Sequence record: PX441839.1
Source of the DNA: a phage
Reading direction: 5' to 3' (one strand)
DNA length: 64,000 bases
Part shown: one piece after another, positions 5,000 through 54,361 of the stretch
Layout: each line of letters begins with the position of its first letter
Position numbering within the stretch: the first letter of the stretch is position 1
Translations under genes and position numbers: made by a program
Notes under the pieces: generated by a model
What the model saw: the letters and a program-made list of their open reading frames with translations, nothing else
Databases searched by the model: none
What the model was told of the DNA's origin: nothing

Positions 5000-5031
5000 G
5001 CAAACGAAACAAACCATAAAAGGGTTACAAA

Positions 5032-5223: not shown

Positions 5224-5227
5224 AGTA

Positions 5228-5256
5228 TTGACAAGGGGCACAGATTACCCCATAAT
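5228..5256 (+). promoter_or_regulatory. sigma70-type early promoter (class III + leader hairpin)
   Basis: TTGACA, 17 bp with gggg..cccc, CATAAT; leader hairpin at 5267-5285. Confidence 0.55.
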
Positions 5257-5307
5257 GTAACACATAGGGCGACACAACGTCGCCCACTAACAAAAGAGAT
5301 AAACAAA

Positions 5308-5592
5308 ATGATCAAGGCAAACAACTTTTTCTTCCTGGCTAACGTAGCGGATCACATCGTGGCAGAATTTAGAAACGTGGATGCAACAGCATTTATAAAA
5401 ATGCGTCATGAAAAAGACGTTTCAACGGATCGCGTAGAAATGGAAGTTACCCGCCACGGCAAAGAGTTTAAAATCAAATATCTGATTATCGTAAATAATG
5501 CAACATTTAGCGAGGGAACCAGCGAACCGATCCCGGACAATATGATCCAGCAAGTGATCGCCGCCGTTGCTAACGGATCAATTTTACCTTAA
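5308..5592 (+). CDS. hypothetical early protein (94 aa)
   Basis: ORF with promoter and leader. Confidence 0.5.
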   Translation: MIKANNFFFLANVADHIVAEFRNVDATAFIKMRHEKDVSTDRVEMEVTRHGKEFKIKYLIIVNNATFSEGTSEPIPDNMIQQVIAAVANGSILP

Positions 5593-5599
5593 AAAGTTG

Positions 5600-5640
5600 T
5601 TGACGTTGGTTTATGTGGGGCGTATAATTCCCCACATAGA
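5600..5640 (+). promoter_or_regulatory. sigma70-type early promoter (class II)
   Basis: TTGACG, 17 bp, TATAAT; palindrome atgtggggcg / ccccacat around the -10. Confidence 0.55.
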
Positions 5641-5661
5641 CAAACGAAACGAGAGATTAAA

Positions 5662-5868
5662 ATGTACACCATGATCGCACTTGCAGTATACTTCCTTTCA
5701 TCTTGCATTTACATTATGTTGGCGCTTGCCTTCCCTGGTGAGTTGGTTTATAGTTTTATGGGCGTAGATCTTGTTTTATGGGCGGTCGCCACGCCACTGA
5801 TGATCGTTCCCGCCGTGATCATTTATTGGATTGAAGAAAAGATTACTGATTTGCTAAAAGGCTATTGA
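5662..5868 (+). CDS. small integral membrane protein (68 aa)
   Basis: ORF with two predicted hydrophobic helices. Confidence 0.45.
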   Translation: MYTMIALAVYFLSSCIYIMLALAFPGELVYSFMGVDLVLWAVATPLMIVPAVIIYWIEEKITDLLKGY

Positions 5869-5926
5869 CAAGGCAACCACAAACAAAGATAATAGCCTCA
5901 TTGAAAACAACTAGTAAGGATTTACG

Positions 5927-6079
5927 ATGTATAAGCTGTTAACCTGGGAACATGAGACAAGCCAACCGATTAGCCGTGACTTTTTCGATTTGTGCGCCGC
6001 TTACCGACTGGCAAAAGGCGGTTACTATAAAGCCCAAATCATTGATGAAAATAATGTTGTACTTTATGAGTTTAAATGA
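5927..6079 (+). CDS. small protein (50 aa), not in the ORF track
   Basis: ATG at 5927 after AAGGA RBS; followed by hairpin gcgccccgaaaggggcg at 6087-6103. Confidence 0.3.
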   Translation: MYKLLTWEHETSQPISRDFFDLCAAYRLAKGGYYKAQIIDENNVVLYEFK

Positions 6080-6133
6080 TTAACAAGCGCCCCGAAAGGG
6101 GCGATAATTACCACACAAAACAGGAGACAGTAA

Positions 6134-6376
6134 ATGAAAGTTCAAAATGTATTGATTTGTGAAGATTGCGCCTTGTACCTTAATACAGGTGAGCTTCCCG
6201 CTGATACCACACCAGAAGATGATCAGGACATCATCCACGGGGCGGAATATCTAGATATAACTTACAAATTTGGGAGTGTAGGCACTAGTTTAGGCTTTTC
6301 AATAAAACCGTGTGAATGTTGCGGATCTCGCCTGGCCGGAGATCGCTATGAATATGATAATCTTGGCTTAAAATAG
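6134..6376 (+). CDS. small zinc-ribbon protein (80 aa)
   Basis: CEDC ... CECCG Cys pairs; GGAGA RBS. Confidence 0.5.
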   Translation: MKVQNVLICEDCALYLNTGELPADTTPEDDQDIIHGAEYLDITYKFGSVGTSLGFSIKPCECCGSRLAGDRYEYDNLGLK

Positions 6377-6536
6377 TAGTTGACTACAACGAAAGAAAAG
6401 AATACTATGTATCACATGAAAGGCAAACAGCCTAAACCAACAAAGAGAGAAACAAAATGAGCGTAGTATTCTTAATTTCAGTTTTCGTAGCTATCGCCGC
6501 TTCAACCGCAATTTGTGTAAAATTAGGATGGTAAGA

Positions 6537-6932
6537 ATGGAAAGTGTAAAAGATACCCTGTTAAATGCTTTTTTGTCCGGCGCTACTGAGGCGTTATTGT
6601 TCGCAGAATCCGCAGAAGATGCAAACGGGGAGACAATCGAACATTTGAACGGTTACGAATTAAGCAATGCAAGCAAAGCACTGTTAAAACTGGAATCTGT
6701 TAAATTCTTAGATTTAGGAAACAACTTAATAGAAAAAGCTATTGACAGTAGCGGCGATTTATACGATTATACTCAAGCGGGGCGGGATTTTTGGTTTACT
6801 CGTCAAGGTCACGGCGTAGGATTCTGGGATCGGGGTCTTGGGGAAGTTGGGGACCAGCTAACAGAACTTTCAAAATGTTTCGGTGAGCGCTGGATCTCTT
6901 TGAATGAAAATAATTTTGTAGAGGTTGAATGA
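6537..6932 (+). CDS. hypothetical protein (about 131 aa; start uncertain)
   Basis: In frame with listed ORF 6513..6932; ATG at 6537 has an AGGA RBS. Confidence 0.45.
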   Translation: MESVKDTLLNAFLSGATEALLFAESAEDANGETIEHLNGYELSNASKALLKLESVKFLDLGNNLIEKAIDSSGDLYDYTQAGRDFWFTRQGHGVGFWDRGLGEVGDQLTELSKCFGERWISLNENNFVEVE

Positions 6933-7276
6933 TGGCTGAAAAATTCTCAATAACTCAAAAGACAATTTACACCATTAAAAGCAAACACGGCGTTATTGAG
7001 TGTGAAGGGATAGCAGGACTAGAAAAGCACGTAGAGGAAACATTAGGCGCTTTTGTTGACAACATGCACGGCAACCATACAGGACTAAGATCAAAAGATC
7101 GGATCAATGATTATGATTACCTGTTAGAGAATCGCCAGGACTTAGAAACAATTTTCGCCCTTATGGATGCCGTTAAGGATCTGAAAAATCCACCATCGCC
7201 GGATCACGATTGTGATGATTATTATTGTAACCGTTGCGGATCTGGATCGGCCATTGAATACGTAGGAAATAATTAA
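6929..7276 (+). CDS. hypothetical protein with C-terminal Cys cluster (115 aa)
   Basis: Start overlaps the upstream stop; CDDYYCNRCG motif. Confidence 0.5.
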   Translation: MMAEKFSITQKTIYTIKSKHGVIECEGIAGLEKHVEETLGAFVDNMHGNHTGLRSKDRINDYDYLLENRQDLETIFALMDAVKDLKNPPSPDHDCDDYYCNRCGSGSAIEYVGNN

Positions 7277-7278
7277 CA

Positions 7279-7500
7279 ATGCAAACTAAAAACCTGTTAG
7301 GAAAATCTGATTTTTTAAGAGCGCTCGCGCCTGGCGAATCGGCGGTATGGAACGTGCAAGGGAAAGATGTAGAAAAGGAAATGCGCCTGTTTACTGCTAC
7401 CGCTTGCCGCCTGGCAGTGACTATCACACAAAGGGCCGCTTTAATTGTTTTGGCTGATAACTTGCCCTTACATTGTGTAATCGTGACTAAGGTTAAGTGA
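7279..7500 (+). CDS. hypothetical protein (73 aa)
   Basis: Abuts the upstream gene. Confidence 0.45.
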   Translation: MQTKNLLGKSDFLRALAPGESAVWNVQGKDVEKEMRLFTATACRLAVTITQRAALIVLADNLPLHCVIVTKVK

Positions 7501-7511
7501 ATGACAATAAC

Positions 7512-7555
7512 AGGCCCAAATAGTGAACGTATGGCGCTATAAGGGCCTTTTTGGT
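7512..7555 (+). terminator. rho-independent terminator
   Basis: aggccc ... gggcct stem followed by ttttt. Confidence 0.45.
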
Positions 7556-7646
7556 AAGAGGTAAGGCAATCAGGCACTAAAGCCTAAAAATTCAATACAG
7601 ACCCTTACAGGGCCTCACATCAAAAATAAAAATCATCTTAAAAGTG

Positions 7647-7675
7647 TTGACTCTTAAATTACTTTTCGGTATCTT
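7647..7675 (+). promoter_or_regulatory. putative sigma70-type promoter with variant leader hairpin
   Basis: TTGACT, 17 bp, TATCTT; leader variant gggcggcaatggtgccaaggccc at 7684-7710. Confidence 0.4.
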
Positions 7676-7728
7676 TTACCACGTAGGGCGGCAATGGTGC
7701 CAAGGCCCACAACTTAGGAGCCAGTAAG

Positions 7729-7983
7729 ATGACAACTTTCAAACACGTAATTTCTGTAAATACTGCTATCCTTGGCGGCGTGGAACGTGATAAAGCTTTT
7801 TATTCAAAGTATATCGGTGATTCATGTTTTAACTACTGGGGCATGAAGATGTCAGAAGTTCGCCGGATACTGGGATTCGGTAATACTGGCCGTAAAGTTA
7901 TTTCGGGCGATATCGCCAGAACTTTAAACGTAGGCTATGACATCGCCAAGAAAATTCTTTCCGATGTAGAAAAATCACTCTAA
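7729..7983 (+). CDS. hypothetical protein (84 aa)
   Basis: ORF with RBS; hairpin ggccccgaaaggggcc follows at 7991-8006. Confidence 0.5.
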   Translation: MTTFKHVISVNTAILGGVERDKAFYSKYIGDSCFNYWGMKMSEVRRILGFGNTGRKVISGDIARTLNVGYDIAKKILSDVEKSL

Positions 7984-8184
7984 TCATTAAGGCCCCGAAA
8001 GGGGCCAACATGCAAAGGGAATAGTAGTGATTTACTTTAAAAATGTTGAAACGGGCCGATTCTACCGCTTTAAAAATAGCCGTGTTTTGTTCCACATTGC
8101 TGGATTGTGGCGCATCAGCGACACATACAGACCCGCCGATCTTACGGGTTATCCTTTCATAGCTGTAAATATGGGACCATCATT

Positions 8185-8376
8185 ATGACCACAGAAAGCG
8201 ACATCAGACAAGCCCTGGCCGCTATGCGTTATCACCATAGATTAAAGAGCAGTGATCCAGGTTACGCCGGATCAACCTTTGAGAGGGATACCATAGAGGG
8301 GATCGCCACACTTAAGAACCTTATGGACCGTATGAGGGACAGCAACAGATCCGACTTTTTAGGGGAGGAGATTTAA
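8185..8376 (+). CDS. hypothetical protein (about 63 aa; start uncertain)
   Basis: Internal ATG of listed ORF 8107..8376. Confidence 0.35.
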   Translation: MTTESDIRQALAAMRYHHRLKSSDPGYAGSTFERDTIEGIATLKNLMDRMRDSNRSDFLGEEI

Positions 8377-8404
8377 TTTATCGGACCATAACCACTGGAT
8401 GTAA

Positions 8405-8440
8405 AAACAGGTTGATTTGGTCGGCCTGTTTTGTTATCTT
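8405..8440 (+). terminator. rho-independent terminator
   Basis: aacagg ... cctgtt stem followed by ttttgtt. Confidence 0.45.
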
Positions 8441-8795
8441 ATTTAGACGGCGGGCACCTGGGGACAGGGGGAGACAAACACCGGACCTGCCTGTTATTCA
8501 GGTTGACTTACCGGACCTGGGCCACGTTCTGCAAATGAAAATGGTTATCATTCCCAATAAAATCAAATACATACTTTCAAACCGTTGTCAAATTTATTTC
8601 ATACTACTGTATAAATATACATGGCCCTAAAACGCCCTGAATCGCGTTTTAAGCCGTTTTACCCTGAATCCTTACCCTACATCATTAAAAAATAGATCTC
8701 GCGAAATCGGACTTTCGCACTTTTTGCCCTTGCAAACATGAAAATTTTATGCTAGATGAGTTGGTTGGAATTGACAAAACTTTACAATCCCCCTA

Positions 8796-8824
8796 TTGAC
8801 GGCAAGCCCAGAAAAGCCTATTAT
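8796..8824 (+). promoter_or_regulatory. sigma70-type promoter with variant leader hairpin
   Basis: TTGACG, 17 bp, TATTAT, then cacatagggcggcaatggtgcgacggccc. Confidence 0.45.
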
Positions 8825-8876
8825 TTATCACATAGGGCGGCAATGGTGCGACGGCCCACAAAGAGGAGACCGTAAA

Positions 8877-9020
8877 ATGAACCTGACTAACTTTAACCGC
8901 TACTACATCCGCGACGAACAAGCTAACGCTTTCGGTTATGACCGCACCGCTGAAGCCGCTGAAAAGCAACATAAAATTTTCATCCGTTGGATTGCAGACT
9001 ATAAAAAGGCCCGCGCTTAA
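8877..9020 (+). CDS. small protein (47 aa)
   Basis: ATG at 8877 after AAGAGGAG RBS; the listed start at 8796 lies inside the promoter. Confidence 0.4.
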   Translation: MNLTNFNRYYIRDEQANAFGYDRTAEAAEKQHKIFIRWIADYKKARA

Positions 9021-9265
9021 TGTATCGCCTTTTTAAAATCAACCTTCCATTGTGGGCCGCTTTAGCGGTCCCCATTGCCTTTTCTGGTGATGCCTTAAAC
9101 AATTGGATTCTTTCCGCTGTACTTGGACCGGATCAAATAGTCGCAACATGCTTAAATGTTTTAAGTGCTACACTGGCAACTTCCCGCCTTGCCTACCGTG
9201 GCAAATCAATAAACCGTTATGATCTGGCGCTATCATTACCCGCTCTAATAACCTGCCTTAACTAA
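9020..9265 (+). CDS. hypothetical hydrophobic protein (81 aa)
   Basis: Start overlaps the upstream stop; last gene of the plus-strand early block. Confidence 0.4.
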   Translation: MYRLFKINLPLWAALAVPIAFSGDALNNWILSAVLGPDQIVATCLNVLSATLATSRLAYRGKSINRYDLALSLPALITCLN

Positions 9266-9272
9266 AAGACAC

Positions 9273-9299
9273 CCGCCCCACCCGGCGGGCTTTTCTTTT
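9273..9299 (+). terminator. rho-independent terminator ending the plus-strand early block
   Basis: cccgcc-ccaccc-ggcggg stem followed by cttttctttt. Confidence 0.55.
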
Positions 9300-9597
9300 G
9301 TCCCAAACGTGGCAAGCCAGAACATCCCGATCCGGTATCGGTCCTACTCCCCCAGCACATCCCCTTATCACCTCACCTGTTAAAATCAACTCATAATTTT
9401 ATTCACTTTAAGATGCATAATTGAATAAACGGCCCCAGGGTATAACGGCAAGGGTAAACAATTGCGACCAGTGTGGAGCGTTACAGCGAGTTTTAGACCC
9501 TATTGACTTCTATTTGCAAACGTGTATCAAGCCATAACTAACTAAAATCACCTTTTATTTACATAACTTGACACTACCTATTCACTTATCTGCATAT

Positions 9598-9616
9598 GAG
9601 AATGATTATCATTAAC
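9598..9616. repeat. near-palindromic AT-rich box gagAATGATTATCATTaac (copy 1 of 3-5)
   Basis: Further copies at 10005-10018 and 10201-10214, degenerate copies at 8540-8552 and 9927-9939; resembles the Fur-box consensus GATAATGATAATCATTATC. Confidence 0.45.
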
Positions 9617-9675
9617 TAAATCATACACTTACCACATACAAGTAAACAAATCAATAATAAATAAAAATTGCCTTT

Positions 9676-9860
9676 CACGTTCCCACGGATCAAGGGAGGG
9701 CGCGCCGGAGGCGCGACCTATAGAAAACAGGTAACGAATCAACCCCCGTTGCTAACTCGCAACGGTTTTTGCTTACGTTCCCACGGTCAAGGGATGACCG
9801 CTTATTAGCTACGCTAACCGCTAACATCCTTTAACCGCTTTAACCTGTTTTCTATAGGTC
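9676..9860 (+). repeat. composite structured element: direct repeats, 16-bp inverted repeat and internal terminator
   Basis: Direct repeats (c/t)acgttcccacgg(a)tcaaggga at 9676-9697 and 9774-9794; inverted repeat cctatagaaaacaggt (9717-9732) / acctgttttctatagg (9843-9858); internal hairpin ccgttgc-taactc-gcaacgg + ttttt at 9745-9770. Confidence 0.45.
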
Positions 9861-10512
9861 TTTTTTATGTGTAAATTCCATAAAGTCAAGGGCTTTTATC
9901 AAGTAATTTTCATAATTTTACTGAATGAGAATGCTTATCTTTTGCATATGTAGGCGTAAATTAGCGTAAACAGGCGGACCTGTAAGGACCTGTTAGGGCC
10001 TATAGGATGATTATCATTGCGTATAAAGTAATCAATTAGGGGGTAGTAATGCCTACTTTTGCCTTATTTTGCCTGACCAGAAACGGTCTTCTCTGTCAAC
10101 CAAAAGATAAATTTTTAGCACAAAATGTAAGTGGCCCAAATGAGAACTATTCTCAAAGTAGAGTAATTCCCAAATGTTAATGAGTCTCACCTCAATTGTG
10201 GAATGATTATCATTAAGTCCAGTGTTGGCGGGACCTGGAGCAGGACGGGTAAGCCAGTGCGTATAAGGTATTTTATGTTAAATGGTCAAAAAGTGGGCGT
10301 AGGCACAGTCTCACCGATGAGTCAAGTAATAAACTGTAAATGTGGGACAAAAGCCCGTAATTGTTGGGGAAAGAATCAAACATTTTCGAAGGTAGGGGCG
10401 GCTACCGCCAGCGACAACGGGCAAGCGGGGAAAGGGTAAGTTATTGTTTTTACTGGATATTTGGGAAAGATCGGCCCCATATGTGAGGGGTAACTCAGGG
10501 GTGCCTGGCACC

Positions 10513-42136: not shown

Positions 42137-42952
42137 TTAATATTTCTCCAGATTCGGTTCAAAGAAGGTGCAAGGCTTCATGATCTTACCTTTATCATCC
42201 TTAAACACAACACGGTTTCCGAACACCTCTCCACGGATACCTTTGTATCTACCTGCATGGTGCTTATTAAGAGATTCTGCCTCGATACTGATCATGTCAT
42301 CAACAGAAAGACCTCCCTTAACAACCCCATATCGAGAAGAAATGAATCCCTCTTTGAATTGTTCAATAGTTGGAATCTTTGACTCATTGGATGACAGAAC
42401 TTCCTCCAATACCGCCTCAATATCCAAATCCATATTGTGGAGAATTGTGCATATCGCACGGAAAGCGAAATGACTCTCCCCGAAACTAATGATCGATGAG
42501 GACAAAATACGAACAAGATCAACCAGAGAGTCGTGTGCCCACGTACCTGGGTCAAGGGCGATCTCTGAGTAATCAACGGCAGCATCAATTGCATCTTCAA
42601 TATTATCAAGAATCTCTGCGTCAACCTTAAGCTTCTTAAGGAAATCCCAGTAAGATACCACAACAAAAAGATCTGCGAGCGCGTCGATGGTTTCTTTCCG
42701 ATCTTTATTCAAAAGAGCATCTTTAAGCTCGTTAAGTTCCTCAACACAGAACGATTTTTGACGATCGATCATCTCTTCACTGTAGTCGTGGTTTTTTCGA
42801 GCGGTTAAGTTAAACTCGCGGACTCGTGAAAAAGCACTTTTTAAAATGTCTCGTTTTTCTTTTTTGGCAAAAGATTCAATAAAAGAATATTCTTGTGTCA
42901 CTTGATTCTCCTCTTCTTTGAAAGTAGGGCCATTATACATGACCAATTCCAT
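42137..42952 (-). CDS. hypothetical protein, possible MazG-like helical domain (271 aa)
   Basis: ELNELKDAL ... ETIDALADLFVVV resembles the MazG EExxE / ELGD pattern, weakly. Confidence 0.4.
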   Translation of the reverse strand: MELVMYNGPTFKEEENQVTQEYSFIESFAKKEKRDILKSAFSRVREFNLTARKNHDYSEEMIDRQKSFCVEELNELKDALLNKDRKETIDALADLFVVVSYWDFLKKLKVDAEILDNIEDAIDAAVDYSEIALDPGTWAHDSLVDLVRILSSSIISFGESHFAFRAICTILHNMDLDIEAVLEEVLSSNESKIPTIEQFKEGFISSRYGVVKGGLSVDDMISIEAESLNKHHAGRYKGIRGEVFGNRVVFKDDKGKIMKPCTFFEPNLEKY

Positions 42953-42955
42953 ATG

Positions 42956-43429
42956 TCAACGATCTTCGTAAACTTTCTTAGCTTCATCTCTCCGCAAGCT
43001 GTTACGGGAATCCCTCAATGCCTCCTTTTTCTTCTGCTCATCCTTCATACGGGCACTCACTATACTTCGAACGGTGTAACCGACAAGCTTTTCCTCTGTC
43101 CCATTCATCCAGTCGAGATCACCAACAAATATGAAGCTATCATCCCACCAATGTTGAATCCAAGTGTATTTCCCAGTTACAGGGTCGTACAAGGTGAAGT
43201 CGGTATAGCAACGACTATCTTCTTCAATCTTAACCTGGTCTTCATCACCCTGTTTGCAGTAAAAACCATCATGGATCTCGATACTACCACTCTTCACCAA
43301 TTTCACAATCTTTTTTGTAGGCTCCTTTATCTGTAACCAATCGTGGAACCATGCCATCCCACAAAACAAGCTGAACAATACAAAAACGAAAACCAGAAAC
43401 GGATCAGACATTATCATTCTCCTCTGCAA
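42956..43429 (-). CDS. membrane-anchored protein (157 aa)
   Basis: N-terminal transmembrane helix. Confidence 0.5.
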   Translation of the reverse strand: MQRRMIMSDPFLVFVFVLFSLFCGMAWFHDWLQIKEPTKKIVKLVKSGSIEIHDGFYCKQGDEDQVKIEEDSRCYTDFTLYDPVTGKYTWIQHWWDDSFIFVGDLDWMNGTEEKLVGYTVRSIVSARMKDEQKKKEALRDSRNSLRRDEAKKVYEDR

Positions 43430-44822
43430 TAGTCATTAACAGGTCGAGTAAAGAGTCAGAGGCTGCGATAATCTCAGGAAGAGAGTTTGCCTGGCTCTTG
43501 TCTCTACGGATCTCTACAAACTTATAGTTCAGTCGAGGAAGGAACAGTGATGCAAGCTCCTTGGTCTCAGACTTCGTAATGTCGTTAGCCTTTCCTGTTA
43601 CAATCTGCCCAATAAAATATTCCCGAGGTTTCTTACGCAGCGCGTCTGTCAAACCGGAGCCAATACCAACCTCTAAAAGTCCATCACGGGATCGGCAAAT
43701 AAGAGCACCGACCAAGTTGGGGTTCTTCTTGTGTGGAATAACATCAACAACTTCGACCTCAAAATCAAACTCATTCTTAAGTTTGATCCCTTTCTTTGTC
43801 TTATTGTCTCCCCAAGGCATAGCTGCCTCTTTGATAACAGTACCTTCTTTCTTCTGCTTACGCATCTCCACAAAGTGTTCGATGGCTTCCCGCATATTGC
43901 TAATGCGACGTCCAGTGATCATCCTGAAATTATCAGGATTGCCAACACTGTTCACAACAATATGGGCAACCAGTCGGCGGTCTTCATAACGAGCTTTGCT
44001 CTTTCTGGCGACATACTCGTCCATGTCTACGCAATCCCAAACCACCAGGCGAACAAGTGCAGGATCGATACTCTCAGGATCTTGGTTAAGGTATCCATTT
44101 CCGATCTCCCGTGGTTGTACTCCGTTAGGATATGAATTGTCGATAACCAAGGCTTCTCCATGAAGAACATAAGGTCCATTCTCACGGGCCTTAAACTTAA
44201 GGCCATTCTCCACGTCAGGTACGCACCGGAAATTTAATTCCTTGCCAGATCGTGATCGATAAATCACCTGTTCAGGCCACACCATAATGTCCGCATACAA
44301 CCCATCCATTTTCTCATCTGAAAATGCACCATCGTAGTTAAACTTACGAAGCAGATCTGGTTTGAATAGCGTGTAGCTTTGATAAGGTGGCTCAGTAATA
44401 AGGTCCTTCCAAACCTTGTTTGTAAGCGTTGTCTGGATACCACACTCAAGATCACGGTTAATAACCTTTACCAGGGTCTCAGGTTCTTCGCATAAACCAA
44501 CCAACTGATCCATGTATGCCTTAGCATCATCTCCGGTATACCGACGACACGCAATGTTGTCAATTAAGTCCTTAATCGAGTCGATCAATGGTCGATTACC
44601 ACAAACCCCGTTTGATGAACAGACACTCTTGAAATTCCGAACAAAAAAGTTCAACTCTTTCGAGTAGGCTACACGAAAAACTTCACGAAGTACATCGTTG
44701 TCTTCATTCTCACGAAGAATGGCCTCTTTCTCTTTTGTAGATCGGGTGTTGGACAGCTTGTTTAAAATTTCAGTTACAGTCATTCGTATCTCCTTTTGGT
44801 GGAATATTGCCGCTGTTGTCAA
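43404..44822 (-). CDS. ATP-dependent DNA ligase (an RNA ligase is not excluded)
   Basis: 472 aa; KMDGLY (motif I KxDG), EGTVIK (motif IV) and a lysine-rich motif V region. Confidence 0.55.
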   Translation of the reverse strand: MTTAAIFHQKEIRMTVTEILNKLSNTRSTKEKEAILRENEDNDVLREVFRVAYSKELNFFVRNFKSVCSSNGVCGNRPLIDSIKDLIDNIACRRYTGDDAKAYMDQLVGLCEEPETLVKVINRDLECGIQTTLTNKVWKDLITEPPYQSYTLFKPDLLRKFNYDGAFSDEKMDGLYADIMVWPEQVIYRSRSGKELNFRCVPDVENGLKFKARENGPYVLHGEALVIDNSYPNGVQPREIGNGYLNQDPESIDPALVRLVVWDCVDMDEYVARKSKARYEDRRLVAHIVVNSVGNPDNFRMITGRRISNMREAIEHFVEMRKQKKEGTVIKEAAMPWGDNKTKKGIKLKNEFDFEVEVVDVIPHKKNPNLVGALICRSRDGLLEVGIGSGLTDALRKKPREYFIGQIVTGKANDITKSETKELASLFLPRLNYKFVEIRRDKSQANSLPEIIAASDSLLDLLMTIAEENDNV

Positions 44823-44961
44823 TTGTTACAAAATCTCCCCTTGTTGTCCAGCAAATTTCACAAACCTCCGCACACAAGGTTATACTCCCATACATGCCCA
44901 CACTCTGCTTCGTATAAGTAAAACTCTCTGTATCTTCCTCACAGATATAACAATATGTCAT
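44770..44961 (-). CDS. small Cys-rich protein (63 aa)
   Basis: CYICEE ... CAEVCEIC. Confidence 0.35.
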   Translation of the reverse strand: MTYCYICEEDTESFTYTKQSVGMYGSITLCAEVCEICWTTRGDFVTIDNSGNIPPKGDTNDCN

Positions 44962-45062
44962 TAACCTCTCCTCAGTGCAGTAACTGTAAGTATAGCAACT
45001 ATCGCACCACCTAATGTAAGAAACATTGCCAAAAACTTGACAGCATCAACAACTATTTCCAT
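44961..45062 (-). CDS. small hydrophobic peptide (33 aa), not in the ORF track
   Basis: MEIVVDAVKFLAMFLTLGGAIVAILTVTALRRG; stop overlaps the next start (TAATG). Confidence 0.3.
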   Translation of the reverse strand: MEIVVDAVKFLAMFLTLGGAIVAILTVTALRRG

Positions 45063-45529
45063 TTCTCTTTCAGAACCTCTCTGATCCTTTCAAATTCCTC
45101 AACGATCCAGTCAAACTGAGGAAGTTCTATAACTTTTGCATTGTCAGGTGAGCCATAGTAGTAATAATGGGTAAATGGAAGTTCAGATTTCCACAACTCC
45201 TCCACTATGTCTCTGTTCTGCCGAAGCTTACATCGTATAGCCTCAAGTATGACTTCCTTGTCTGAATCTGTCAACCCCTCTTTGTCGATTCTTTCGTGTT
45301 TAAGGCGATTGCCATACTTCTTGGCCTCAAAACCTTTCATTGTCCTAAGCTCATAGTGCTTACAACCTGTCAGGTAAAAATACCAAAATCCCTCCATACA
45401 CTTAAATGATCCGTACCCAGGGACGGTAAAATCCCTGTCGTACAAGTTTGTCAGCATCCTTCCAAGTTTTGTTGCTCCCTTGGTGTAGATGTTGATGTGG
45501 TTGTTTCCGTCATCTTCTGGCGAGAACAC
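45053..45529 (-). CDS. possible NADAR (DUF1768, YbiA-like) domain protein
   Basis: INIYTKG ... LTNL ... GYGSF.CMEGFWYF and LEAIRCKLRQNRDIVEEL resemble the NADAR pattern (INFY ... FSNF ... EHYFQ ... RKALRAKF); judged from memory. Confidence 0.35.
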   Translation of the reverse strand: MFSPEDDGNNHINIYTKGATKLGRMLTNLYDRDFTVPGYGSFKCMEGFWYFYLTGCKHYELRTMKGFEAKKYGNRLKHERIDKEGLTDSDKEVILEAIRCKLRQNRDIVEELWKSELPFTHYYYYGSPDNAKVIELPQFDWIVEEFERIREVLKEKWK

Positions 45530-45544: not shown

Positions 45545-45964
45545 TTAAGATTTTTTCTTTTTGGTGGTTGAAGCAGATTTTTGAACTTTGGGTGATTTAA
45601 CCATTGGTCGATGAACTTGTTTCCCACGTCTTACCCCTTTCTTCGGTTTATAAGGCTCCTCCGGCTTTTCATACAACCCGAGGATTGCATTTTCAACGGC
45701 ACTTGTCGGAACAGTCGCCATTCCCCTTCGCTTGGCATCGGGAAGCTGTACCTCCCACACAGACAGCCAATATTTCAAGTCTTCTATACGGTCCTGTGCC
45801 CAAGGATCAGGTTCCTTGATCCCAATGAGTCGTTCAAGCTCATCATATCTCTCATTGAGGCACTTTTCAAGTTTTTCAATTGGCGTTGAAAATACAAACG
45901 CCTCCTTGTCGAAAGGTTGCGTCTTCTTTTGCATACCTACTCCTCCTCTTTGATCCTTACCCAT
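45545..45964 (-). CDS. hypothetical protein with basic C-terminal tail (139 aa)
   Basis: Six-frame ORF. Confidence 0.5.
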   Translation of the reverse strand: MGKDQRGGVGMQKKTQPFDKEAFVFSTPIEKLEKCLNERYDELERLIGIKEPDPWAQDRIEDLKYWLSVWEVQLPDAKRRGMATVPTSAVENAILGLYEKPEEPYKPKKGVRRGKQVHRPMVKSPKVQKSASTTKKKKS

Positions 45965-47099: not shown

Positions 47100-47380
47100 A
47101 GTGCTGTGCAGTATACACCCTGTAGATCAGATGTCAAGACTACCAATTCAAAAAATTTTCAGATAATCTATGTATAAGATCTAAAGATCTATTATAAAAA
47201 GTTATAAGATCTTATTGTTTTTATAATTATTATGAATATAATGAATAATAATTATGGTTTTTATAATTTATGAGTGAAACGAATAAATTATAAGATCAAA
47301 TGGGGTTCTTATGAGCGTAGCGAATGGGTATAATCTTAATATAAGTATTGTGTGCCTTTTGAGGCAACGACGTAGGTTGT
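47100..47380. other. AT-rich divergent control region with TATAAGATC repeats (candidate origin / promoter hub)
   Basis: tataagatc at 47174, 47203 and 47288; agatct three times; long A/T runs; lies between divergently transcribed blocks. Confidence 0.4.
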
Positions 47381-47867: not shown

Positions 47868-48158
47868 ATGAATATTCAAGAACAGGTTAAAATAACTTTC
47901 GAAGACCTTGTGGAACTACATAAGAAACGAAAATATCAAAAGGGCCGAGAAAAGAAGGCAATGGAGGATGTGGTATTCTTTTCTAAAGATGGTCATGGAC
48001 TTTCCAAGAAAGAGGCAAACAGGAAGGTTGATGCAGCGTGGGCTACACAACGGGACGCTGTGAACATTGTGTCAGGTATTGATAAGCAGATTGAATATGA
48101 ACTGAATGCCATAGGGCAGATTATCAACTTTGTTGCGGAAAAGGAGAGTGATAAATGA
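47868..48158 (+). CDS. hypothetical protein (96 aa)
   Basis: ATG at 47868 after GAGAGGAGAGAAG RBS. Confidence 0.5.
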   Translation: MNIQEQVKITFEDLVELHKKRKYQKGREKKAMEDVVFFSKDGHGLSKKEANRKVDAAWATQRDAVNIVSGIDKQIEYELNAIGQIINFVAEKESDK

Positions 48159-49069
48159 TTTCTTTACATCTCGATAACTTTAAAAGGGTTAAGCTTGAGT
48201 TTATGACGTTCAGCGGTGGAGAGCGTAACGTCCGTATAGGTGGACTGGATGTCGAAAAAGATGGTGTTCTTGAGTTTGCTGGATATGGGGAGGTTGACCA
48301 TCTCTCTCAACGTAAGTGGGAAAATTATCGTGTAACAGCACATATTCAAAGCTCAGATGATATCATGGATCTGTTACTTCTAAAGGATGCCATTGATCGT
48401 GTGGGCAATGGATGTTTGCGACGTGTATACTCAATCCTGCATCTTCCGTATCTCCCATATGCTCGACAAGACCGTGCAATGGTAAACGGGGAGGCGATCT
48501 CTGTTGTCGTTATGGCAAACCTGATTAACTCTCTTGAGTTTGATGCCGTGTGGATTGATGACCCGCATTCTGATGTTGGTCCGTCGCATATAAAAAACGC
48601 CGTAATTACCCCTCAGCATGAGCTTTTGCTGGACATGTGTAACAAAGATGATGTTCTTTCCGATGGAACAATCATTGTTGCACCTGATGCAGGTGCCATG
48701 AAAAAGGCAAGCAAGTTGGCTGAACTCGCTGATTTACCTCTCGGGACTGGTGGTAAACACAGGGATGTCAAGACAGGTAAGATTACAGGAACAACTTACA
48801 CAGGGCCAGATGTAAACGGTAAACGATGCCTGTTGGTAGACGATATTGCGGATGGCGCTGCCACATTTGTGTGTCTTGCAGAGAAACTAAAATCCCTGGG
48901 TGCAAAACAGGTTGATCTGTATGTAACGCACGGCATTTTCTCAAAAGGGATTGATGACCTTGAGCATATCGATAAGATTTATTCGGCATACCCCTGGAGA
49001 AAGAACGTTAAGTGGAAAAATGGAAAAGGTAAGCTAAATACGGTTGACATCGTAAGCTGGTTCGAGTAA
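48155..49069 (+). CDS. ribose-phosphate pyrophosphokinase (Prs)-like; candidate ADP-ribose pyrophosphate synthetase (NARP1 Adps)
   Basis: LPYLPYARQDR and LLVDDIADGAATF match the Prs motifs; immediately upstream of the NAMPT-like gene. Confidence 0.8.
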   Translation: MISLHLDNFKRVKLEFMTFSGGERNVRIGGLDVEKDGVLEFAGYGEVDHLSQRKWENYRVTAHIQSSDDIMDLLLLKDAIDRVGNGCLRRVYSILHLPYLPYARQDRAMVNGEAISVVVMANLINSLEFDAVWIDDPHSDVGPSHIKNAVITPQHELLLDMCNKDDVLSDGTIIVAPDAGAMKKASKLAELADLPLGTGGKHRDVKTGKITGTTYTGPDVNGKRCLLVDDIADGAATFVCLAEKLKSLGAKQVDLYVTHGIFSKGIDDLEHIDKIYSAYPWRKNVKWKNGKGKLNTVDIVSWFE

Positions 49070-49125
49070 AGTACATTTTATCGGGAGGCGTGTTGCCTCC
49101 CACATACAACGAAGGAGAGTTACAT

Positions 49126-50916
49126 ATGCTGAGTCAAAATAGCCCTATTCTTTTTGCTGATTGGTACAAGCCATCCCACATCTCCATGTATCATGGTAAA
49201 TCAGAGATCGTCCAAGATAACATGACACCACGTAATCACAAACATTACACTCACTTTTCTGACAATGATAAGCGTGTAATGATGGCTGGCCTTCAAGGAT
49301 TCATCAAATGGTTCCTTATCGAAAAGTTCAACAAGGATTTCTTCTCCCTGTCCAAAGAGGAGGCTCTGGCAGAGTTTAAAGAGATCTGTGACTTATCTAT
49401 TGGACCTGGTAAAGTTGAAACATGGGGATTCGAAAAGCTTCACGACCTTGGCTACCTGCCAATTGAAATTCGTGCTTTACCAGAAGGTACTTTGTGCCCG
49501 GTACAGGTTCCACTGTTCACTATTCAGAACACGCACCCTGACTTCTACTGGTTGCCTAACTATTTGGAATCTGTGGTATCTTCTGAAACATGGAAGACTA
49601 TCACCACGGCAACTACGTTCTGGCAGTATCGTAAACTGTCCGAGAAGTTCGCTGCACTGACCTGTGACGACAACAGTCACGTACCGTTCCAAAACCACTG
49701 CTTCGCCTATCGCGGACAGGCTGGTACGCACGATGCAGCGCAATCTGAGTTTGGTCAACTGATCAACTCTATGGGTACAGACACCATTCCGGCAATCCTG
49801 TATGCAAATAATTATTACTGGATGAAGGGTAAGTTTGTTGCAGGGTCAATTCCAGCATCTGAACATTCTGTTGCCACCACCAACATTGGGTTCATCGTTG
49901 GTCGTTTACGCTCAGAAAATCCAGAAATGTCTCTGGACGATCTCCGTTTCCATGCAGAGGTTGAGTTCCTTAAGCGTTACATTACGGAAATTTTCCCAAC
50001 TGGGCTTGTTTCTTATGTTGGTGACAGCTACGATTGGTATCGTCTAATTCGACATGGGGCCGAGGCTCTGAAAGAGGAAATCTTAGCTCGTGATGGAAAA
50101 CTTGTTTGGCGACCTGACTCTGGTGTTCCAGAGGACATTATTTGTGGGACTGTTGACTGGAGCAAGATTCAGGATTTAACTGATGCAGGTTCCCTTGAAT
50201 ATGCGGGTGAGTGGGCACTAGAAACTGCTGTTGAATCCGTTCAAGAAGATACACCTCACGGTGAGCAGGGTGACTGGGACGTATCGAGCCTGTTCTTGTA
50301 CGAAGGTGCTCTGTACCGTATGCGTGGAGAAATTGAATGGAATCGTTATGACAAGCAGTATTACTATGTCGATGGTTCACGAGTAATCTCTGTGGAGCCA
50401 GTGGAACTGGATGATGTGCAGAAAGGTGCCATTGAAGTGCAATGGGAAATTTTCGGTGGAACTGTGAACAGTAAAGGGTACAAGGTTCTTGACCCACACG
50501 TAGGTCTGATTTACGGTGACTCAATTTCTGTTGAACGTGCTAACACTATCTACAAGCGACTTGAGGCCAAAGGATTTGCATCAAGTAACATTGTTCTCGG
50601 TGTTGGTTCCTACACTGCACAGTTCGTTACACGAGACAGTCTCGGAATGGCAGTCAAGGCAACTGGAGCAATTATTGATGGTGAGCAGATCATGGTTGTT
50701 AAGGAGCCAAAGACAGATATTGGTAAGAAGTCAGCCAAAGGGTTCCTGAAAGTTGTTCGTAATAGTGAAGGTGAGTTAGAGCTTGTCGATAACCTTCAAC
50801 TTGACCAGGTGGATGATGCAGACAATGAATTACGAACTGTATTCAAGGATGGTGTCTTGGTTGTTGACGAGACTCTTGAAGAAATTCGTAACCGCGCCGC
50901 TTCAAACCTTAAGTAA
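49126..50916 (+). CDS. nicotinamide phosphoribosyltransferase (NAMPT/NadV)-like; candidate nicotinamide-ADPR transferase (NARP1 Namat)
   Basis: N-terminal SPILFADWYKPSH matches the NAMPT start (N.IL.TDSYK.TH); about 596 aa; ATG at 49126 after GAAGGAGAG RBS. Confidence 0.8.
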   Translation: MLSQNSPILFADWYKPSHISMYHGKSEIVQDNMTPRNHKHYTHFSDNDKRVMMAGLQGFIKWFLIEKFNKDFFSLSKEEALAEFKEICDLSIGPGKVETWGFEKLHDLGYLPIEIRALPEGTLCPVQVPLFTIQNTHPDFYWLPNYLESVVSSETWKTITTATTFWQYRKLSEKFAALTCDDNSHVPFQNHCFAYRGQAGTHDAAQSEFGQLINSMGTDTIPAILYANNYYWMKGKFVAGSIPASEHSVATTNIGFIVGRLRSENPEMSLDDLRFHAEVEFLKRYITEIFPTGLVSYVGDSYDWYRLIRHGAEALKEEILARDGKLVWRPDSGVPEDIICGTVDWSKIQDLTDAGSLEYAGEWALETAVESVQEDTPHGEQGDWDVSSLFLYEGALYRMRGEIEWNRYDKQYYYVDGSRVISVEPVELDDVQKGAIEVQWEIFGGTVNSKGYKVLDPHVGLIYGDSISVERANTIYKRLEAKGFASSNIVLGVGSYTAQFVTRDSLGMAVKATGAIIDGEQIMVVKEPKTDIGKKSAKGFLKVVRNSEGELELVDNLQLDQVDDADNELRTVFKDGVLVVDETLEEIRNRAASNLK

Positions 50917-52138: not shown

Positions 52139-52173
52139 TCTTAATACATAGCCCGTAAGGAATTGCGGGATTG

Positions 52174-52249
52174 CCGATTTAGCTCAGTTGGTAGAGCGCT
52201 TCACTTGTAATGATGATGTCGCAGGTTCGAGTCCTGCAATCGGCACCAG
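52174..52249 (+). tRNA. tRNA-Thr (anticodon UGU)
   Basis: Manual cloverleaf: acceptor gccgatt/aatcggc, D-arm gctc-agttggta-gagc, T-arm gcagg-ttcgagt-cctgc, CCA encoded; one U-U mismatch in the anticodon stem. Confidence 0.7.
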
Positions 52250-52254
52250 ATAAG

Positions 52255-52328
52255 GCCCAATAGCTCACTGGTGAGAGCCAACCCCTCATAAGGGTTAGGG
52301 CGGGGATCGTAACCCCGGTGGGCCACCA
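52255..52328 (+). tRNA. tRNA-Met (anticodon CAU; initiator, elongator or Ile-lysidine not distinguished)
   Basis: Acceptor ggcccaa/gtgggcc, anticodon arm aaccc-ctcataa-gggtt, CCA encoded. Confidence 0.75.
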
Positions 52329-52347
52329 ACCAAAGAGAGAATTTAGC

Positions 52348-52426
52348 GCGGGTGTATCTCATCCGTCTTCTAAACGGACGTTAACCGAGTAATTGGAGTA
52401 TGGGGGTTCGAATCCCTCCACCCGCG
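52348..52426 (+). tRNA. atypical tRNA-like gene with anticodon-type hairpin UCU (Arg?)
   Basis: Canonical T-arm ggggg-ttcgaat-ccctc and acceptor gcgggtg/cacccgc, but no D-arm, a 23-nt extra segment, no CCA, and the acceptor extends to a perfect 16-bp stem (52339-52354 / 52419-52434). Confidence 0.4.
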
Positions 52427-52450
52427 CTAAATTCTTTTGAGGTGTAAAAA

Positions 52451-52966
52451 TTGCTAAACTTGAAAAATCAAAATATAGATAAAGGCACGGGATATTTATA
52501 CGTGTACGATCCAAGTCACCCAATGGCAAATAAGTCTGGAAAGGTTTATGTTCACAGGTATGTTGCAGAGACGGGGTTTGGTATAAAACTAACACCTGAC
52601 CTGATAGTTCACCACAAGGATGAGAATAAGCTAAACAACGAGCTAACAAATCTCGAAGTTATGACTTATTCTGAACATGCCCGTCACCACCACGGGGCGG
52701 ATTTTGTAGAATGTGTATGCAAGACCTGTGGCAATGTAACTTTGAGGAGGCCCTCGGAAGTTGTATCATTTTGTTCACACAAGTGCTCAACAACATTCAG
52801 AAGGAAATTTGAAATCTCTCCTCAAGAGTTGCAGGATTTGGTTTGTAACTACCCAGTTAGTGTTATTGCAAAGATGTTTGGGGTTAGTGATACAGCAATA
52901 CACAAGAAATGTAAAACCCTAGGGATTAAAAAGATGCCGAAAGGATTCTTTTTAAGACTCCCTTGA
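52451..52966 (+). CDS. HNH homing endonuclease
   Basis: YVHRYVAE ... IVHHKDENKLNNELTNLEVMTYSEHARHH is a classic HNH motif; C-terminal Cys cluster and HTH-like region. Confidence 0.7.
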   Translation: MLNLKNQNIDKGTGYLYVYDPSHPMANKSGKVYVHRYVAETGFGIKLTPDLIVHHKDENKLNNELTNLEVMTYSEHARHHHGADFVECVCKTCGNVTLRRPSEVVSFCSHKCSTTFRRKFEISPQELQDLVCNYPVSVIAKMFGVSDTAIHKKCKTLGIKKMPKGFFLRLP

Positions 52967-52998
52967 CATAGGTAATTGATCCTGATAAGATAATTACA

Positions 52999-53397
52999 TT
53001 GTTTCATTTCGGGATCGACAATATGGCAAAAGCTGAGATCGTAACCCGTAAGCGTGGACGGCCTTCGAAAGAAGAAAGCACAGCCATTGCTACTGAAAAG
53101 GCAATTCTTGAATATCGCCTTAAAGTGGCGATGTTATTACCTACCGCTGTTGATACCCTTAAAGGTCTGTTAACGTCAGGCTCTGAAAAAGTTAAAGAGG
53201 GTACTGCAAAATTCCTGATCAATGAGGCTAAAGAGGTGTTTAACATCTACGTCGCAGAAGATAATCAGGACAGTGAAGCAGGTGGTACAGTATCTGCAAA
53301 CTCACAGACCCACGCTGGATCGTCTGATGAGATTAAAAACATTATGCCTCTTACTACGGAAATCCGTGAGTACAAGATGGCAGAAGGTGAAGATTAA
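52999..53397 (+). CDS. hypothetical protein with AT-hook-like RKRGRPSK (about 125-132 aa)
   Basis: Six-frame ORF; terminator follows. Confidence 0.45.
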   Translation: MFHFGIDNMAKAEIVTRKRGRPSKEESTAIATEKAILEYRLKVAMLLPTAVDTLKGLLTSGSEKVKEGTAKFLINEAKEVFNIYVAEDNQDSEAGGTVSANSQTHAGSSDEIKNIMPLTTEIREYKMAEGED

Positions 53398-53428
53398 GAC
53401 CCTTCGGGGTCTTTGAGTTTTCTTTTGA
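53398..53428 (+). terminator. rho-independent terminator
   Basis: gaccc-ttcg-gggtc followed by tttgagttttctttt. Confidence 0.5.
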
Positions 53429-53457
53429 CGATTATTTTCGTACAAAAGAGAATTTAA

Positions 53458-53544
53458 GCCAGGTTATACCGTAGGGGTAGCGGAGGAGACTGTAAATCTC
53501 TGGTCATTGCGACTCGGGTGGTTCGACGCCATCACCTGGCACCA
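53458..53544 (+). tRNA. tRNA-Tyr (anticodon GUA), type II
   Basis: Acceptor gccaggt/acctggc, anticodon arm ggaga-ctgtaaa-tctct, long variable arm, CCA encoded. Confidence 0.7.
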
Positions 53545-53549
53545 AATAT

Positions 53550-53639
53550 GGAGAGTTGGCAGAGCGGCTGAATGCACCTGACTTGAAATCAGGCGACCGT
53601 TAACTCGGTCCGTGGGTTCAAATCCTACGCTCTCCGCCA
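53550..53639 (+). tRNA. tRNA-Ser (anticodon UGA), type II
   Basis: Tracks E. coli tRNA-Ser: ggagagt-tg-gcagagcggctgaatgc ... cctga-cttgaaa-tcagg ... gtggg-ttcaaat-cctac ... gctctcc-g-cca. Confidence 0.85.
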
Positions 53640-53720
53640 AATATCGCCCCTTATATAAAAGAACACCTGCGCGGCTGGAAAAACCCACTCAACAGTTCTT
53701 GAAAAGGGGCAACAATTTAC

Positions 53721-53798
53721 GGATCATTAGCTACAATTGGTTAGAGCGGCTCACTGTTAATGAGACGGTTCGTGGTTCAAGTCCACGATGATCCGCCA
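53721..53798 (+). tRNA. tRNA-Asn (anticodon GUU)
   Basis: Acceptor ggatcat/atgatcc, anticodon loop ctgttaa, T-arm cgtgg-ttcaagt-ccacg, CCA encoded. Confidence 0.8.
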
Positions 53799-53805
53799 AA
53801 CAATA

Positions 53806-53950
53806 GAAGGGTAACTTAAAGGCGGGTGTCCTGCCACTGGCCTCCAAAACCAGTCGTAAGGGGTTAGATTCCTCACTCTTCTGCCAAGTCGGGGTGTGCG
53901 CCAAATAAGAGCGGGTTAGCAACTGTGTTGTAGATTAGTCTACCACCCCA
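53806..53950 (+). ncRNA. degenerate tRNA-like sequences / possible small stable RNAs within the tRNA cluster
   Basis: Hairpins actgg-cctccaaaa-ccagt and gtaga-ttag-tctac plus tRNA-like termini (agaaggg ... ctcttct-g-cca), but no canonical cloverleaf. Confidence 0.3.
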
Positions 53951-53960
53951 CACAATAAGA

Positions 53961-54036
53961 AGTCCTATAGTTTCAGCGGTTAAAATACTCGCCTGTCACG
54001 CGAGAGTCACGGGTTCGAATCCCGTTAGGACTGCCA
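53961..54036 (+). tRNA. tRNA-Asp (anticodon GUC)
   Basis: Acceptor agtccta/taggact, anticodon arm ctcgc-ctgtcac-gcgag, T-arm acggg-ttcgaat-cccgt, CCA encoded. Confidence 0.8.
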
Positions 54037-54043
54037 TTTCTGA

Positions 54044-54119
54044 TGGAGATTAGCTCAGTAGGTAGAGCAAGCGACCGATAATCGCTGGGTCACTGGTTCA
54101 AGTCCAGTATCTCCAACCA
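54044..54119 (+). tRNA. tRNA-Ile (anticodon GAU), with unusual C at position 33
   Basis: Acceptor tggagat/atctcca, D-arm gctc-agtaggta-gagc, anticodon arm agcga-ccgataa-tcgct, T-arm actgg-ttcaagt-ccagt, CCA encoded. Confidence 0.65.
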
Positions 54120-54124
54120 AATAC

Positions 54125-54201
54125 CTCCGTGTAGCTCAGTCTGGTAGAGCGATTGCTTTGGGAGCAATAGGTCCAACGTTCGAGTCGTTGTACGGAGACC
54201 A
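54125..54201 (+). tRNA. tRNA-Pro (anticodon UGG)
   Basis: Acceptor ctccgtg/tacggag, anticodon arm attgc-tttggga-gcaat, T-arm caacg-ttcgagt-cgttg, CCA encoded. Confidence 0.85.
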
Positions 54202-54204
54202 AAT

Positions 54205-54279
54205 TGGGGATTAGCCAAGCGGTAAGGCACGAGGCTTTGATCCTTGTATGCGGAGGTTCGAATCCTCCATCCCCAGCCA
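54205..54279 (+). tRNA. tRNA-Gln (anticodon UUG)
   Basis: Acceptor tggggat/atcccca, anticodon loop ctttgat, T-arm ggagg-ttcgaat-cctcc, CCA encoded. Confidence 0.8.
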
Positions 54280-54284
54280 AATAA

Positions 54285-54361
54285 GCGTCCTTAGTGTCAG
54301 TGGTCTAACACTCCATCCTTCCAAGTTGGAACCACGGGTTCGAATCCCGTAGGACGCTCCA
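54285..54361 (+). tRNA. tRNA-Gly (anticodon UCC)
   Basis: Acceptor gcgtcct/aggacgc, anticodon loop cttccaa, T-arm acggg-ttcgaat-cccgt, CCA encoded. Confidence 0.8.

Follow-up and report, generated by a model that had tools for sequence, protein, structure and literature searches.

A conserved 158-amino-acid phage protein belongs to the NADAR superfamily and appears to form a separate family next to T4 gp30.3

That NADAR proteins reverse the ADP-ribosylation of guanine and enable phages to escape DarTG1 is a recent finding (PMC11125620, PMC11825919). All tested NADARs hydrolyse the guanine adduct of ADP-ribose (guanine-ADPr) and not thymine-ADPr (PMC11125620, PMC11825919). Three phage NADARs, AdfN-T4 (gp30.3), AdfN-Bas32 of a T5-like phage and AdfN-Bas60 of a phi92-like phage, have been shown to counter DarTG1 (PMC11825919). 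In the active site, E43 of the P. nicotianae NADAR (PnNADAR) binds the distal ribose (PMC11543638), and the last-strand catalytic residue is Glu in YbiA, Asp in DarT1-linked NADARs and His in gp30.3-type proteins (PMC11543638, PMC11125620). A Lys that binds phosphate and adenine follows about seven residues past the Glu (K50 in PnNADAR, K95 in E. coli C7 NADAR, K43 in T4; PMC11543638); this Lys is essential to the E. coli C7 enzyme, and in AdfN-T4 it is important. A further Lys, K115 of E. coli C7 NADAR, is required for cellular rescue from DarT1 toxicity and dispensable for catalysis (PMC11543638). In this study, we analyse a 158-amino-acid (aa) protein encoded in a stretch of phage DNA of 64,000 nucleotides (nt) (sequence record PX441839.1; the whole stretch is referred to as the window). 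Its membership of the NADAR superfamily is supported by its fold and by homology to two families, gp30.3 and YbiA. Judged by sequence, the protein and its homologs, here called the clade, represent a separate NADAR family whose nearest neighbour is the His-type gp30.3 'phage NADAR' family.

The gene lies on the minus strand and is preceded by a ribosome-binding motif:

45053..45529, minus strand: coding sequence (CDS) for the NADAR-superfamily protein of 158 aa, from the GTG start (45529..45527) through the stop codon
45537..45542, minus strand: Shine-Dalgarno sequence AGGAGG, 7 nt 5' of the GTG, by direct sequence reading

The TAA of the upstream gene is found at 45547..45545 on the minus strand, so near that the genes around the CDS are tightly packed. 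Homolog N-termini (MVSPANDG, MWSPVNDG) support GTG as the start of the open reading frame (ORF). The initial annotation, which had been made from the sequence alone, had called a 158-aa ORF at 45053-45529, and this is borne out; the strings it quoted, HINIYTKG, MLTNLYD, EGFWYFYL and ILEAIRCKLRQNRDIVEELW, are all present in the translation. The window is ~97% identical to Salmonella phage SSBI34 (filed under Vequintavirinae), the closest published genome, in which the ortholog is an intact ORF of 97.5% identity that carries no annotation (L001, MZ520832, 7054-7530). The 158-aa ORF is certainly a genuine, strongly conserved gene. In the SSBI34 record, a BLAST note 'GAP32_342, Length=155' sits on an adjoining 63-aa CDS. 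GAP32_342/CBB_348 is a homolog of the 158-aa ORF and not of this 63-aa CDS, so the note looks like an annotation slip.

Membership of the NADAR superfamily is supported by structure comparison and by profile comparison. An AlphaFold2 model built on an alignment of 50 family sequences reached a predicted local distance difference test (pLDDT) score of 96.8 and a predicted template modelling (pTM) score of 0.89. When the model was compared by Foldseek with the Protein Data Bank (PDB), the top three structures were YbiA (2B3W), 8BAU and 8BAT, with a probability of 1.00 and template modelling (TM) scores of 0.54-0.60; the fourth had a TM score of 0.16. Structural alignments to canonical NADARs show 14-21% identity. 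In the viral structure library BFVD the protein's own family came first, followed by dozens of annotated viral NADARs with a probability of 1.0. At the sequence level, hmmsearch with the 50-sequence family profile against PDB sequences found the NADAR 8BAU (E 4.8e-4), all others being above 0.1, and the 8BAU alignment keeps LSNF, SxE, AKKxG and K(L/F) in register with the family profile. Profile-profile comparison by hhalign matched the family to the T4 gp30.3 family over 139 columns (96.7%, E 4.4e-10) and to the YbiA family (82.8%, E 9.3e-6); the control comparison of gp30.3 with YbiA gave 97.6% (E 2.8e-12). Against the lone YbiA sequence hhalign gave a probability of 2%, the comparison being informative only with the YbiA alignment.

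Simpler searches were negative, and two of them speak against the assignment. A Pfam scan of the 158-aa protein gave no family at E values up to 10, including PF08719 and PF08010, and the hidden Markov model (HMM) of gp30.3 reached the protein with an E value of 0.47, so that it is not a PF08010 member. The YbiA HMM gave E 0.83, which leaves the protein outside the YbiA family (PF08719) as well, and phmmer with the single 158-aa sequence against PDB sequences returned noise only. The negative Pfam scan says little, because the proven NADAR T4 gp30.3 also misses PF08719 and matches only its own family PF08010 (4.6e-71). Since only profile-profile comparison joins the two, the clade is a sister of the gp30.3 family and not a member of it.

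The residues of the active site were located by these alignments, and their conservation was counted over 266 family members. The chain numbering of 8BAU equals the numbering in PMC11543638 with an offset of 2, whereupon ten ligand contacts given there match the expected letters. The codons concerned are:

45392..45394, minus strand: Glu46, corresponding to the catalytic Glu that binds the distal ribose (E43 of PnNADAR, E88 of E. coli C7 NADAR, E36 of T4 AdfN)
45167..45169, minus strand: His121, in LPxxHYY, corresponding to the last-strand catalytic residue (position of PnNADAR E125)
45359..45361, minus strand: Lys57, in LTGCK, possible displaced phosphate-binding Lys (K43 in LQGCK of T4, K50 of PnNADAR)
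45320..45322, minus strand: Lys70, in AKKxG, corresponding to PnNADAR K75 and E. coli C7 NADAR K115

Glu46 is aligned to the NADAR Glu both by hmmsearch (8BAU) and by hhalign (gp30.3, YbiA) and is Glu in 266 of 266 members. His121 is aligned by hhalign with the invariant His123 of the gp30.3 family and is His in 265 of 266 (99.6%); according to DSSP it lies in the model at the edge of strand 122-125, beside a bridge at 119-120. Lys70 is conserved in 263 of 266 members (99%), AKKLG being aligned with AKKyG of 8BAU. PnNADAR G78, which contacts adenine via its backbone, corresponds to G73 (97% conserved). The equivalent of the phosphate-binding Lys differs between alignment methods: hhalign places LTGCK on LQGCK (T4 K43), with a 4-residue insertion after EGF, whereas HMMER puts PnNADAR K50 on L53, the Glu+7 position. 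Lys or Arg occupies position 53 in 26% and position 57 in ~40% of members, and 70% have one at position 53, 56 or 57. Near-invariant residues specific to the clade are H11, N13 and Y15 of an HxNxY strand, W49, Y50, Y122 and Y123. The protein thus keeps the fold, together with the Glu that binds ribose and a catalytic residue of the His type, and the phosphate-binding part appears to be remodelled.

The initial annotation had proposed a YbiA-like NADAR. The superfamily part of this claim stands, on the fold, the match to 8BAU, the hhalign results and the Glu/His pair; the narrow assignment to YbiA does not, the clade being gp30.3-like instead. The profile and catalytic-residue checks named with the proposal turned out in its favour with sensitive profiles, which match NADAR, and with the conserved Glu and last-strand His, plain Pfam being negative. 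The remote-homology annotation is solid; it does not by itself demonstrate a new mechanism or principle.

Among the described proteins, T4 gp30.3/AdfN-T4 is most like the 158-aa protein. It is of similar length (152 versus 158 aa), belongs to the same fold family, and the profile-profile match covers nearly the full length. LSNFA-PF, F-x-x-(L/V)-EGF, L-x-G-C-K, QN and an invariant last-strand His are common to gp30.3 and the clade. Both proteins are stand-alone, are encoded upstream of a phage DNA ligase and count as early, this timing being presumed for the one described here. Unlike gp30.3, the clade carries four inserted residues (WYxY) that separate its Glu from its Lys motif, an invariant HxNxY N-terminal strand and an HYY motif of its own, and many fusions to DUF4326, SLOG and Macro domains; moreover, the Lys, semi-conserved in the clade, is kept in at least 90% of the gp30.3 family. 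Compared with canonical NADAR/YbiA proteins (PF08719; 2B3W, 8BAU, 8BAT), the last-strand Glu/Asp is replaced by His and the Glu+7 Lys by Leu, and DxxWG is gone.

AdfN-Bas60 resembles the 158-aa protein in being a phage-encoded, stand-alone member of the NADAR superfamily, and Bas60 was called a Vequintavirinae phage in PMC11825919. Identity of the two was considered and rejected, as no protein in the Bas60 genome (MZ501100, now Stephanstirmvirinae) matches the clade. The sole NADAR-type gene found in that genome, bas60_0111, encodes a YbiA-type NADAR at another locus (YbiA profile E 5e-7, clade profile E 1.5) and is taken here to be AdfN-Bas60. AdfN-Bas32 is likewise a stand-alone phage NADAR; it is set apart from the clade by its description only, which places it near archaeal NADARs (PMC11825919). 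With Bas32 distinguished in this way, the clade would represent a fourth phage NADAR type besides the three AdfNs. Searches with three family HMMs found no second NADAR in the window or in the whole SSBI34 genome. The Yersinia jumbo phages fHe-Yen9-03/-04 (LT960552/NC_042116) encode both a YbiA-type NADAR (g164/g167, COG3236) and a clade member (g345); this co-occurrence suggests that the two are not redundant.

The clade is large and mostly without functional labels. A first homolog search with the 158-aa protein found 176 homologs, and an exhaustive HMM search of 1.84 billion representatives turned up no fewer than 2,030 clusters at 50% identity, of which 563 lay below 1e-30. Copies are present in 553 deposited phage records and nearly all are labelled hypothetical, the annotated exceptions being one 'putative N-glycosidase' and one 'DUF1768 family protein'. 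Phages with a clade member include Ackermannviridae, jumbo phages and therapeutic-candidate Salmonella, Klebsiella and Escherichia phages. The only PHROGs matches of the 158-aa protein are phrog_652 and phrog_11222, both of unknown function. Public annotation thus does not reflect the NADAR status of the clade.

Among 20 longer family members that were scanned, 16 contain a Pfam partner domain. With X for the clade domain, the recurrent arrangements are DUF4326-X, DUF4326-X-SLOG (YAcAr) and X-SLOG. P0140 (532 aa) has the order Macro-DUF4326-X-SLOG, which hints at processing of ADPr derivatives; in a single case, P0234 (548 aa), an N-terminal pyrimidine-dimer DNA glycosylase (Pyr_excise) precedes X, which hints at a DNA substrate. 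DUF4326-NADAR-SLOG/Macro proteins are described from jumbo phages and giant viruses; in the fusions of this kind among the family members found here, the middle domain is the clade domain (P0134, P0135, P0140, P0143 and others). The window protein is the stand-alone form. The Aravind group takes such fusions to process ADPr derivatives of low molecular weight (PMC9503650, PMC7824862). Since the NADAR domain of these fusions is evidently the clade domain, the clade has most likely been counted as NADAR in the surveys of that laboratory already.

The gene is part of a leftward, tightly packed cluster that extends from 47070 to ~43400 and whose last gene encodes an ATP-dependent DNA ligase (43404..44822). 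A divergent rightward operon starts from the intergenic region that also heads this cluster. The promoter candidates and the operon genes concerned are:

47110..47137, minus strand: sigma-70-like promoter candidate TTGACA-16-TATACT, 11/12, by consensus match only, heading the leftward cluster
42932-42959, minus strand: second sigma-70 consensus site TTGACA-16-TATAAT, 12/12, just downstream of the ligase gene
48155..49069, plus strand: PRS-like gene (Pribosyltran_N, Pribosyltran, Pribosyl_synth) of the divergent rightward operon
49090..50916, plus strand: NAMPT-like gene, 608 aa (NAPRTase), of the divergent rightward operon

No convincing terminator was seen between the site at 47137..47110 and the 158-aa CDS, and this consensus match fits early transcription of the gene by host polymerase. 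Pairs of PRS-like and NAMPT-like genes are of the kind named NARP1 (Adps and Namat), a system that uses ADP-ribose and nicotinamide to regenerate NAD+ (PMC13464706, 10.1101/2024.02.11.579819). By gene kind the pair in the window would be of NARP1 type, with Adps and Namat as candidate identities; it is kept in Hena1, L011 and Bas60.

The closest relatives are Erwinia phage Hena1 (L004) and a 147-kb metagenomic contig, L011 (64-70% identity). In both (Hena1 4948-10302, L011 5068-10041) the gene order is metallophosphatase, Rnl1 RNA ligase, PNK-like kinase, clade gene, small ORF, SIR2, small ORF and DNA ligase; the start of the clade gene overlaps the kinase stop, and the PRS and NAMPT pair lies opposite. 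A sirtuin-centred RNA-repair neighbourhood has been described in rV5-like phages (PMC9503650). The window lacks Rnl1, PNK, the phosphoesterase and SIR2, and SSBI34 has no SIR2 in its whole genome and no Rnl1 or PNK at this site, these genes having been either lost or never acquired; the clade gene is kept, and a general association of the clade with RNA repair and SIR2 was rejected on these grounds. The DNA ligase of the window shows no similarity to the Hena1-type ligase detectable by tblastn at E 1e-3, so it seems to have been replaced. In other lineages the clade gene is found next to an early small-gene block and SSB (ST32), next to genes for a histone-like protein, MazG and topoisomerase II (SKML-39), among genes of unknown function (CBB) or next to genes for DNA ligase, endonuclease VII and nucleotide metabolism (L013). 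In Bas60 a PNK-ligase cluster lies opposite the PRS and NAMPT pair, without the clade gene. The initial annotation had set the gene beside the NAD+ module at 48-51 kb, as two separate answers to NAD+-consuming host defences. The proximity to the PRS and NAMPT pair is real. As evidence of a functional link it is weak: Bas60 shows the synteny without the gene, in most other lineages the gene is distant from NAD+ genes, and adjacency to the NARP1-type pair is therefore inherited synteny.

Some further features were seen nearby. A Cys-rich 63-aa ORF (CxxC ... CxxC, zinc-ribbon-like) at 44770-44961 on the minus strand lies between the clade gene and the ligase gene; it overlaps the longest ligase ORF (43404-44822), and in SSBI34 the annotated ligase begins at a later start (459 aa). 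The plus strand carries a cluster of ten tRNA genes at 52173-54361 (Thr, Met, Tyr, Ser, Asn, Asp, Ile, Pro, Gln, Gly). Between tRNA-Met (which ends at 52328) and tRNA-Tyr (which starts at 53458) lies a 171-aa ORF with HNH-like motifs (52451-52966, plus strand), whose start is overlapped by an HNH endonuclease annotation of SSBI34; it may encode a homing endonuclease that has inserted between the tRNA genes. Outside the window, a 'putative phosphatase' of SSBI34 next to an annotated RNA ligase (L018, 15847-17755) is 46% identical over 162/244 aa to a 'putative macrodomain protein' of Bas60. From these sequences, the phage may have a separate macro and RNA-ligase module elsewhere in its genome.

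The explanation we prefer, to which we give slightly less than an even chance, is that by analogy the 158-aa protein would be a stand-alone His-type NADAR N-glycosidase, made early and removing N-linked ADPr, most probably guanine-ADPr on phage single-stranded DNA. It would be expressed early from a host-type promoter and would hydrolyse the N-glycosidic bond that joins a nitrogen of the modified partner to the distal ribose of ADP-ribose. In the cleft, Glu46 would bind the hydroxyls of this ribose from one side, with His121 acting from the last beta-strand opposite. By analogy, the best-backed substrate would be ADP-ribosyl-guanine in single-stranded phage DNA that DarT1-type toxins have modified; once the adduct is cleaved, replication would resume and free ADP-ribose would be set free. 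This choice of substrate is based on the analogy to gp30.3/AdfN and on the guanine specificity of the tested NADARs. The analysis shows the gene and its conservation, the NADAR fold, the homology to gp30.3 and YbiA proteins and the retained Glu and His; from these we infer that the 158-aa protein is catalytic, what it acts on, when it is expressed and that it counters host defence.

Several observations count against a guanine-specific, anti-DarT enzyme. T4 gp30.3 fails to neutralise DarT1 outside infection (PMC11125620, PMC11825919), so that activity in vitro need not mean defence evasion. The recurrent SLOG, Macro and DUF4326 fusions have been read as processing of soluble ADPr derivatives (PMC9503650) and not as DNA repair. 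Within the active site, 30% of members have no Lys or Arg at positions 53, 56 and 57; PnNADAR R79, which contacts the pyrophosphate, corresponds to Asn at position 74 here (Lys or Arg in 74% of the family); and the pyrophosphate-binding motif DxxWG of YbiA is absent, an aromatic HYYxYG standing in its place. With the Lys not fixed, DxxWG gone and Asn at position 74, the binding of ADP-ribose may differ. The anti-DarT role, which the initial annotation had raised, is plausible by analogy, but the fusions fit the processing of soluble ADPr derivatives equally well.

The same fold and chemistry could serve soluble substrates, namely N-linked ADPr derivatives that are immune signals or toxic by-products, such as canonical cyclic ADP-ribose (cADPR), the His-ADPR-type signals of Thoeris or other base-ADPr adducts. 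Destruction of the signal would yield linear ADP-ribose, which the neighbouring NARP1-type Adps and Namat could rebuild into NAD+. We regard this as rather unlikely, but as deserving serious weight. It is favoured by the repeated DUF4326-X-SLOG, Macro-DUF4326-X-SLOG and DUF4326-X fusions and their reading by the Aravind group (PMC9503650, PMC7824862), and by the PRS-like and NAMPT-like genes, which lie 2.6 kb off in a divergent operon here and are present in Hena1 and L011 as well. Precedents for enzymes that feed NARP1 are the O-glycosidase RyDEP (10.64898/2026.05.28.727677) and the Macro phosphatase Adpp (10.64898/2026.01.28.702374), and the presence of a clade member together with a canonical YbiA-type NADAR in some jumbo phages suggests non-redundant substrates. 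However, the clade gene lies outside the NARP1 operon, Bas60 has the NARP1/repair-cluster synteny without it, the members of ST32, SKML-39, CBB and L013 are nowhere near NAD+ genes, and the literature so far holds no NADAR that acts on a soluble immune signal. The more specific form, in which the clade would not be a DarT antidote but an N-glycosidase for N-linked ADPr immune signals or adducts, feeding linear ADP-ribose to NARP1-type Adps and Namat, appears improbable. If true, the signal-cleaving clade would be a third kind of NARP1 feeder after RyDEP and Adpp, and HYYxYG together with the semi-conserved Lys would reflect another substrate (His-ADPR-type or N1-cyclic ADPR signals).

Alternatively, the protein could be an accessory of phage RNA repair that strips ADP-ribose from RNA ends or bases, or that clears ADPr by-products of sirtuin/KptA-like 2'-phosphate removal in tRNA repair. 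The gene order of Hena1 and L011 (metallophosphatase, Rnl1, PNK-like kinase, clade gene, SIR2), as in rV5-like phages (PMC9503650), would agree with such a role, and NADARs that reverse RNA ADP-ribosylation have been reported (PMC11833690). Yet the window keeps the clade gene without Rnl1, PNK, phosphoesterase and SIR2, SSBI34 has no SIR2, and DNA-metabolism genes are the neighbours in other lineages; we hold this role to be quite doubtful. A YbiA-like metabolic N-glycosidase acting on ribosylamines other than ADPr (riboflavin-pathway intermediates), or a non-catalytic binder that keeps the fold, seems very unlikely. E. coli YbiA is indeed annotated as an N-glycosidase, NADAR domains act on riboflavin-pathway intermediates according to PMC9503650, and the loss of DxxWG and of a fixed phosphate-binding Lys would suit a pyrophosphate-free substrate. 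The near-invariant Glu and His, however, argue for catalysis, the fusion partners are ADPr/NAD-related domains, the closest family, gp30.3, is a proven ADPr-guanine hydrolase, and a role in riboflavin damage is of no obvious value to a lytic phage.

With the altered phosphate-binding residues and the SLOG, Macro and DUF4326 fusions, a specificity different from that of the known NADARs is plausible. The substrate of the clade, be it DNA-linked, RNA-linked or soluble ADPr, would tell which defence the phages evade, and its knowledge would let hundreds of 'hypothetical proteins' be annotated.
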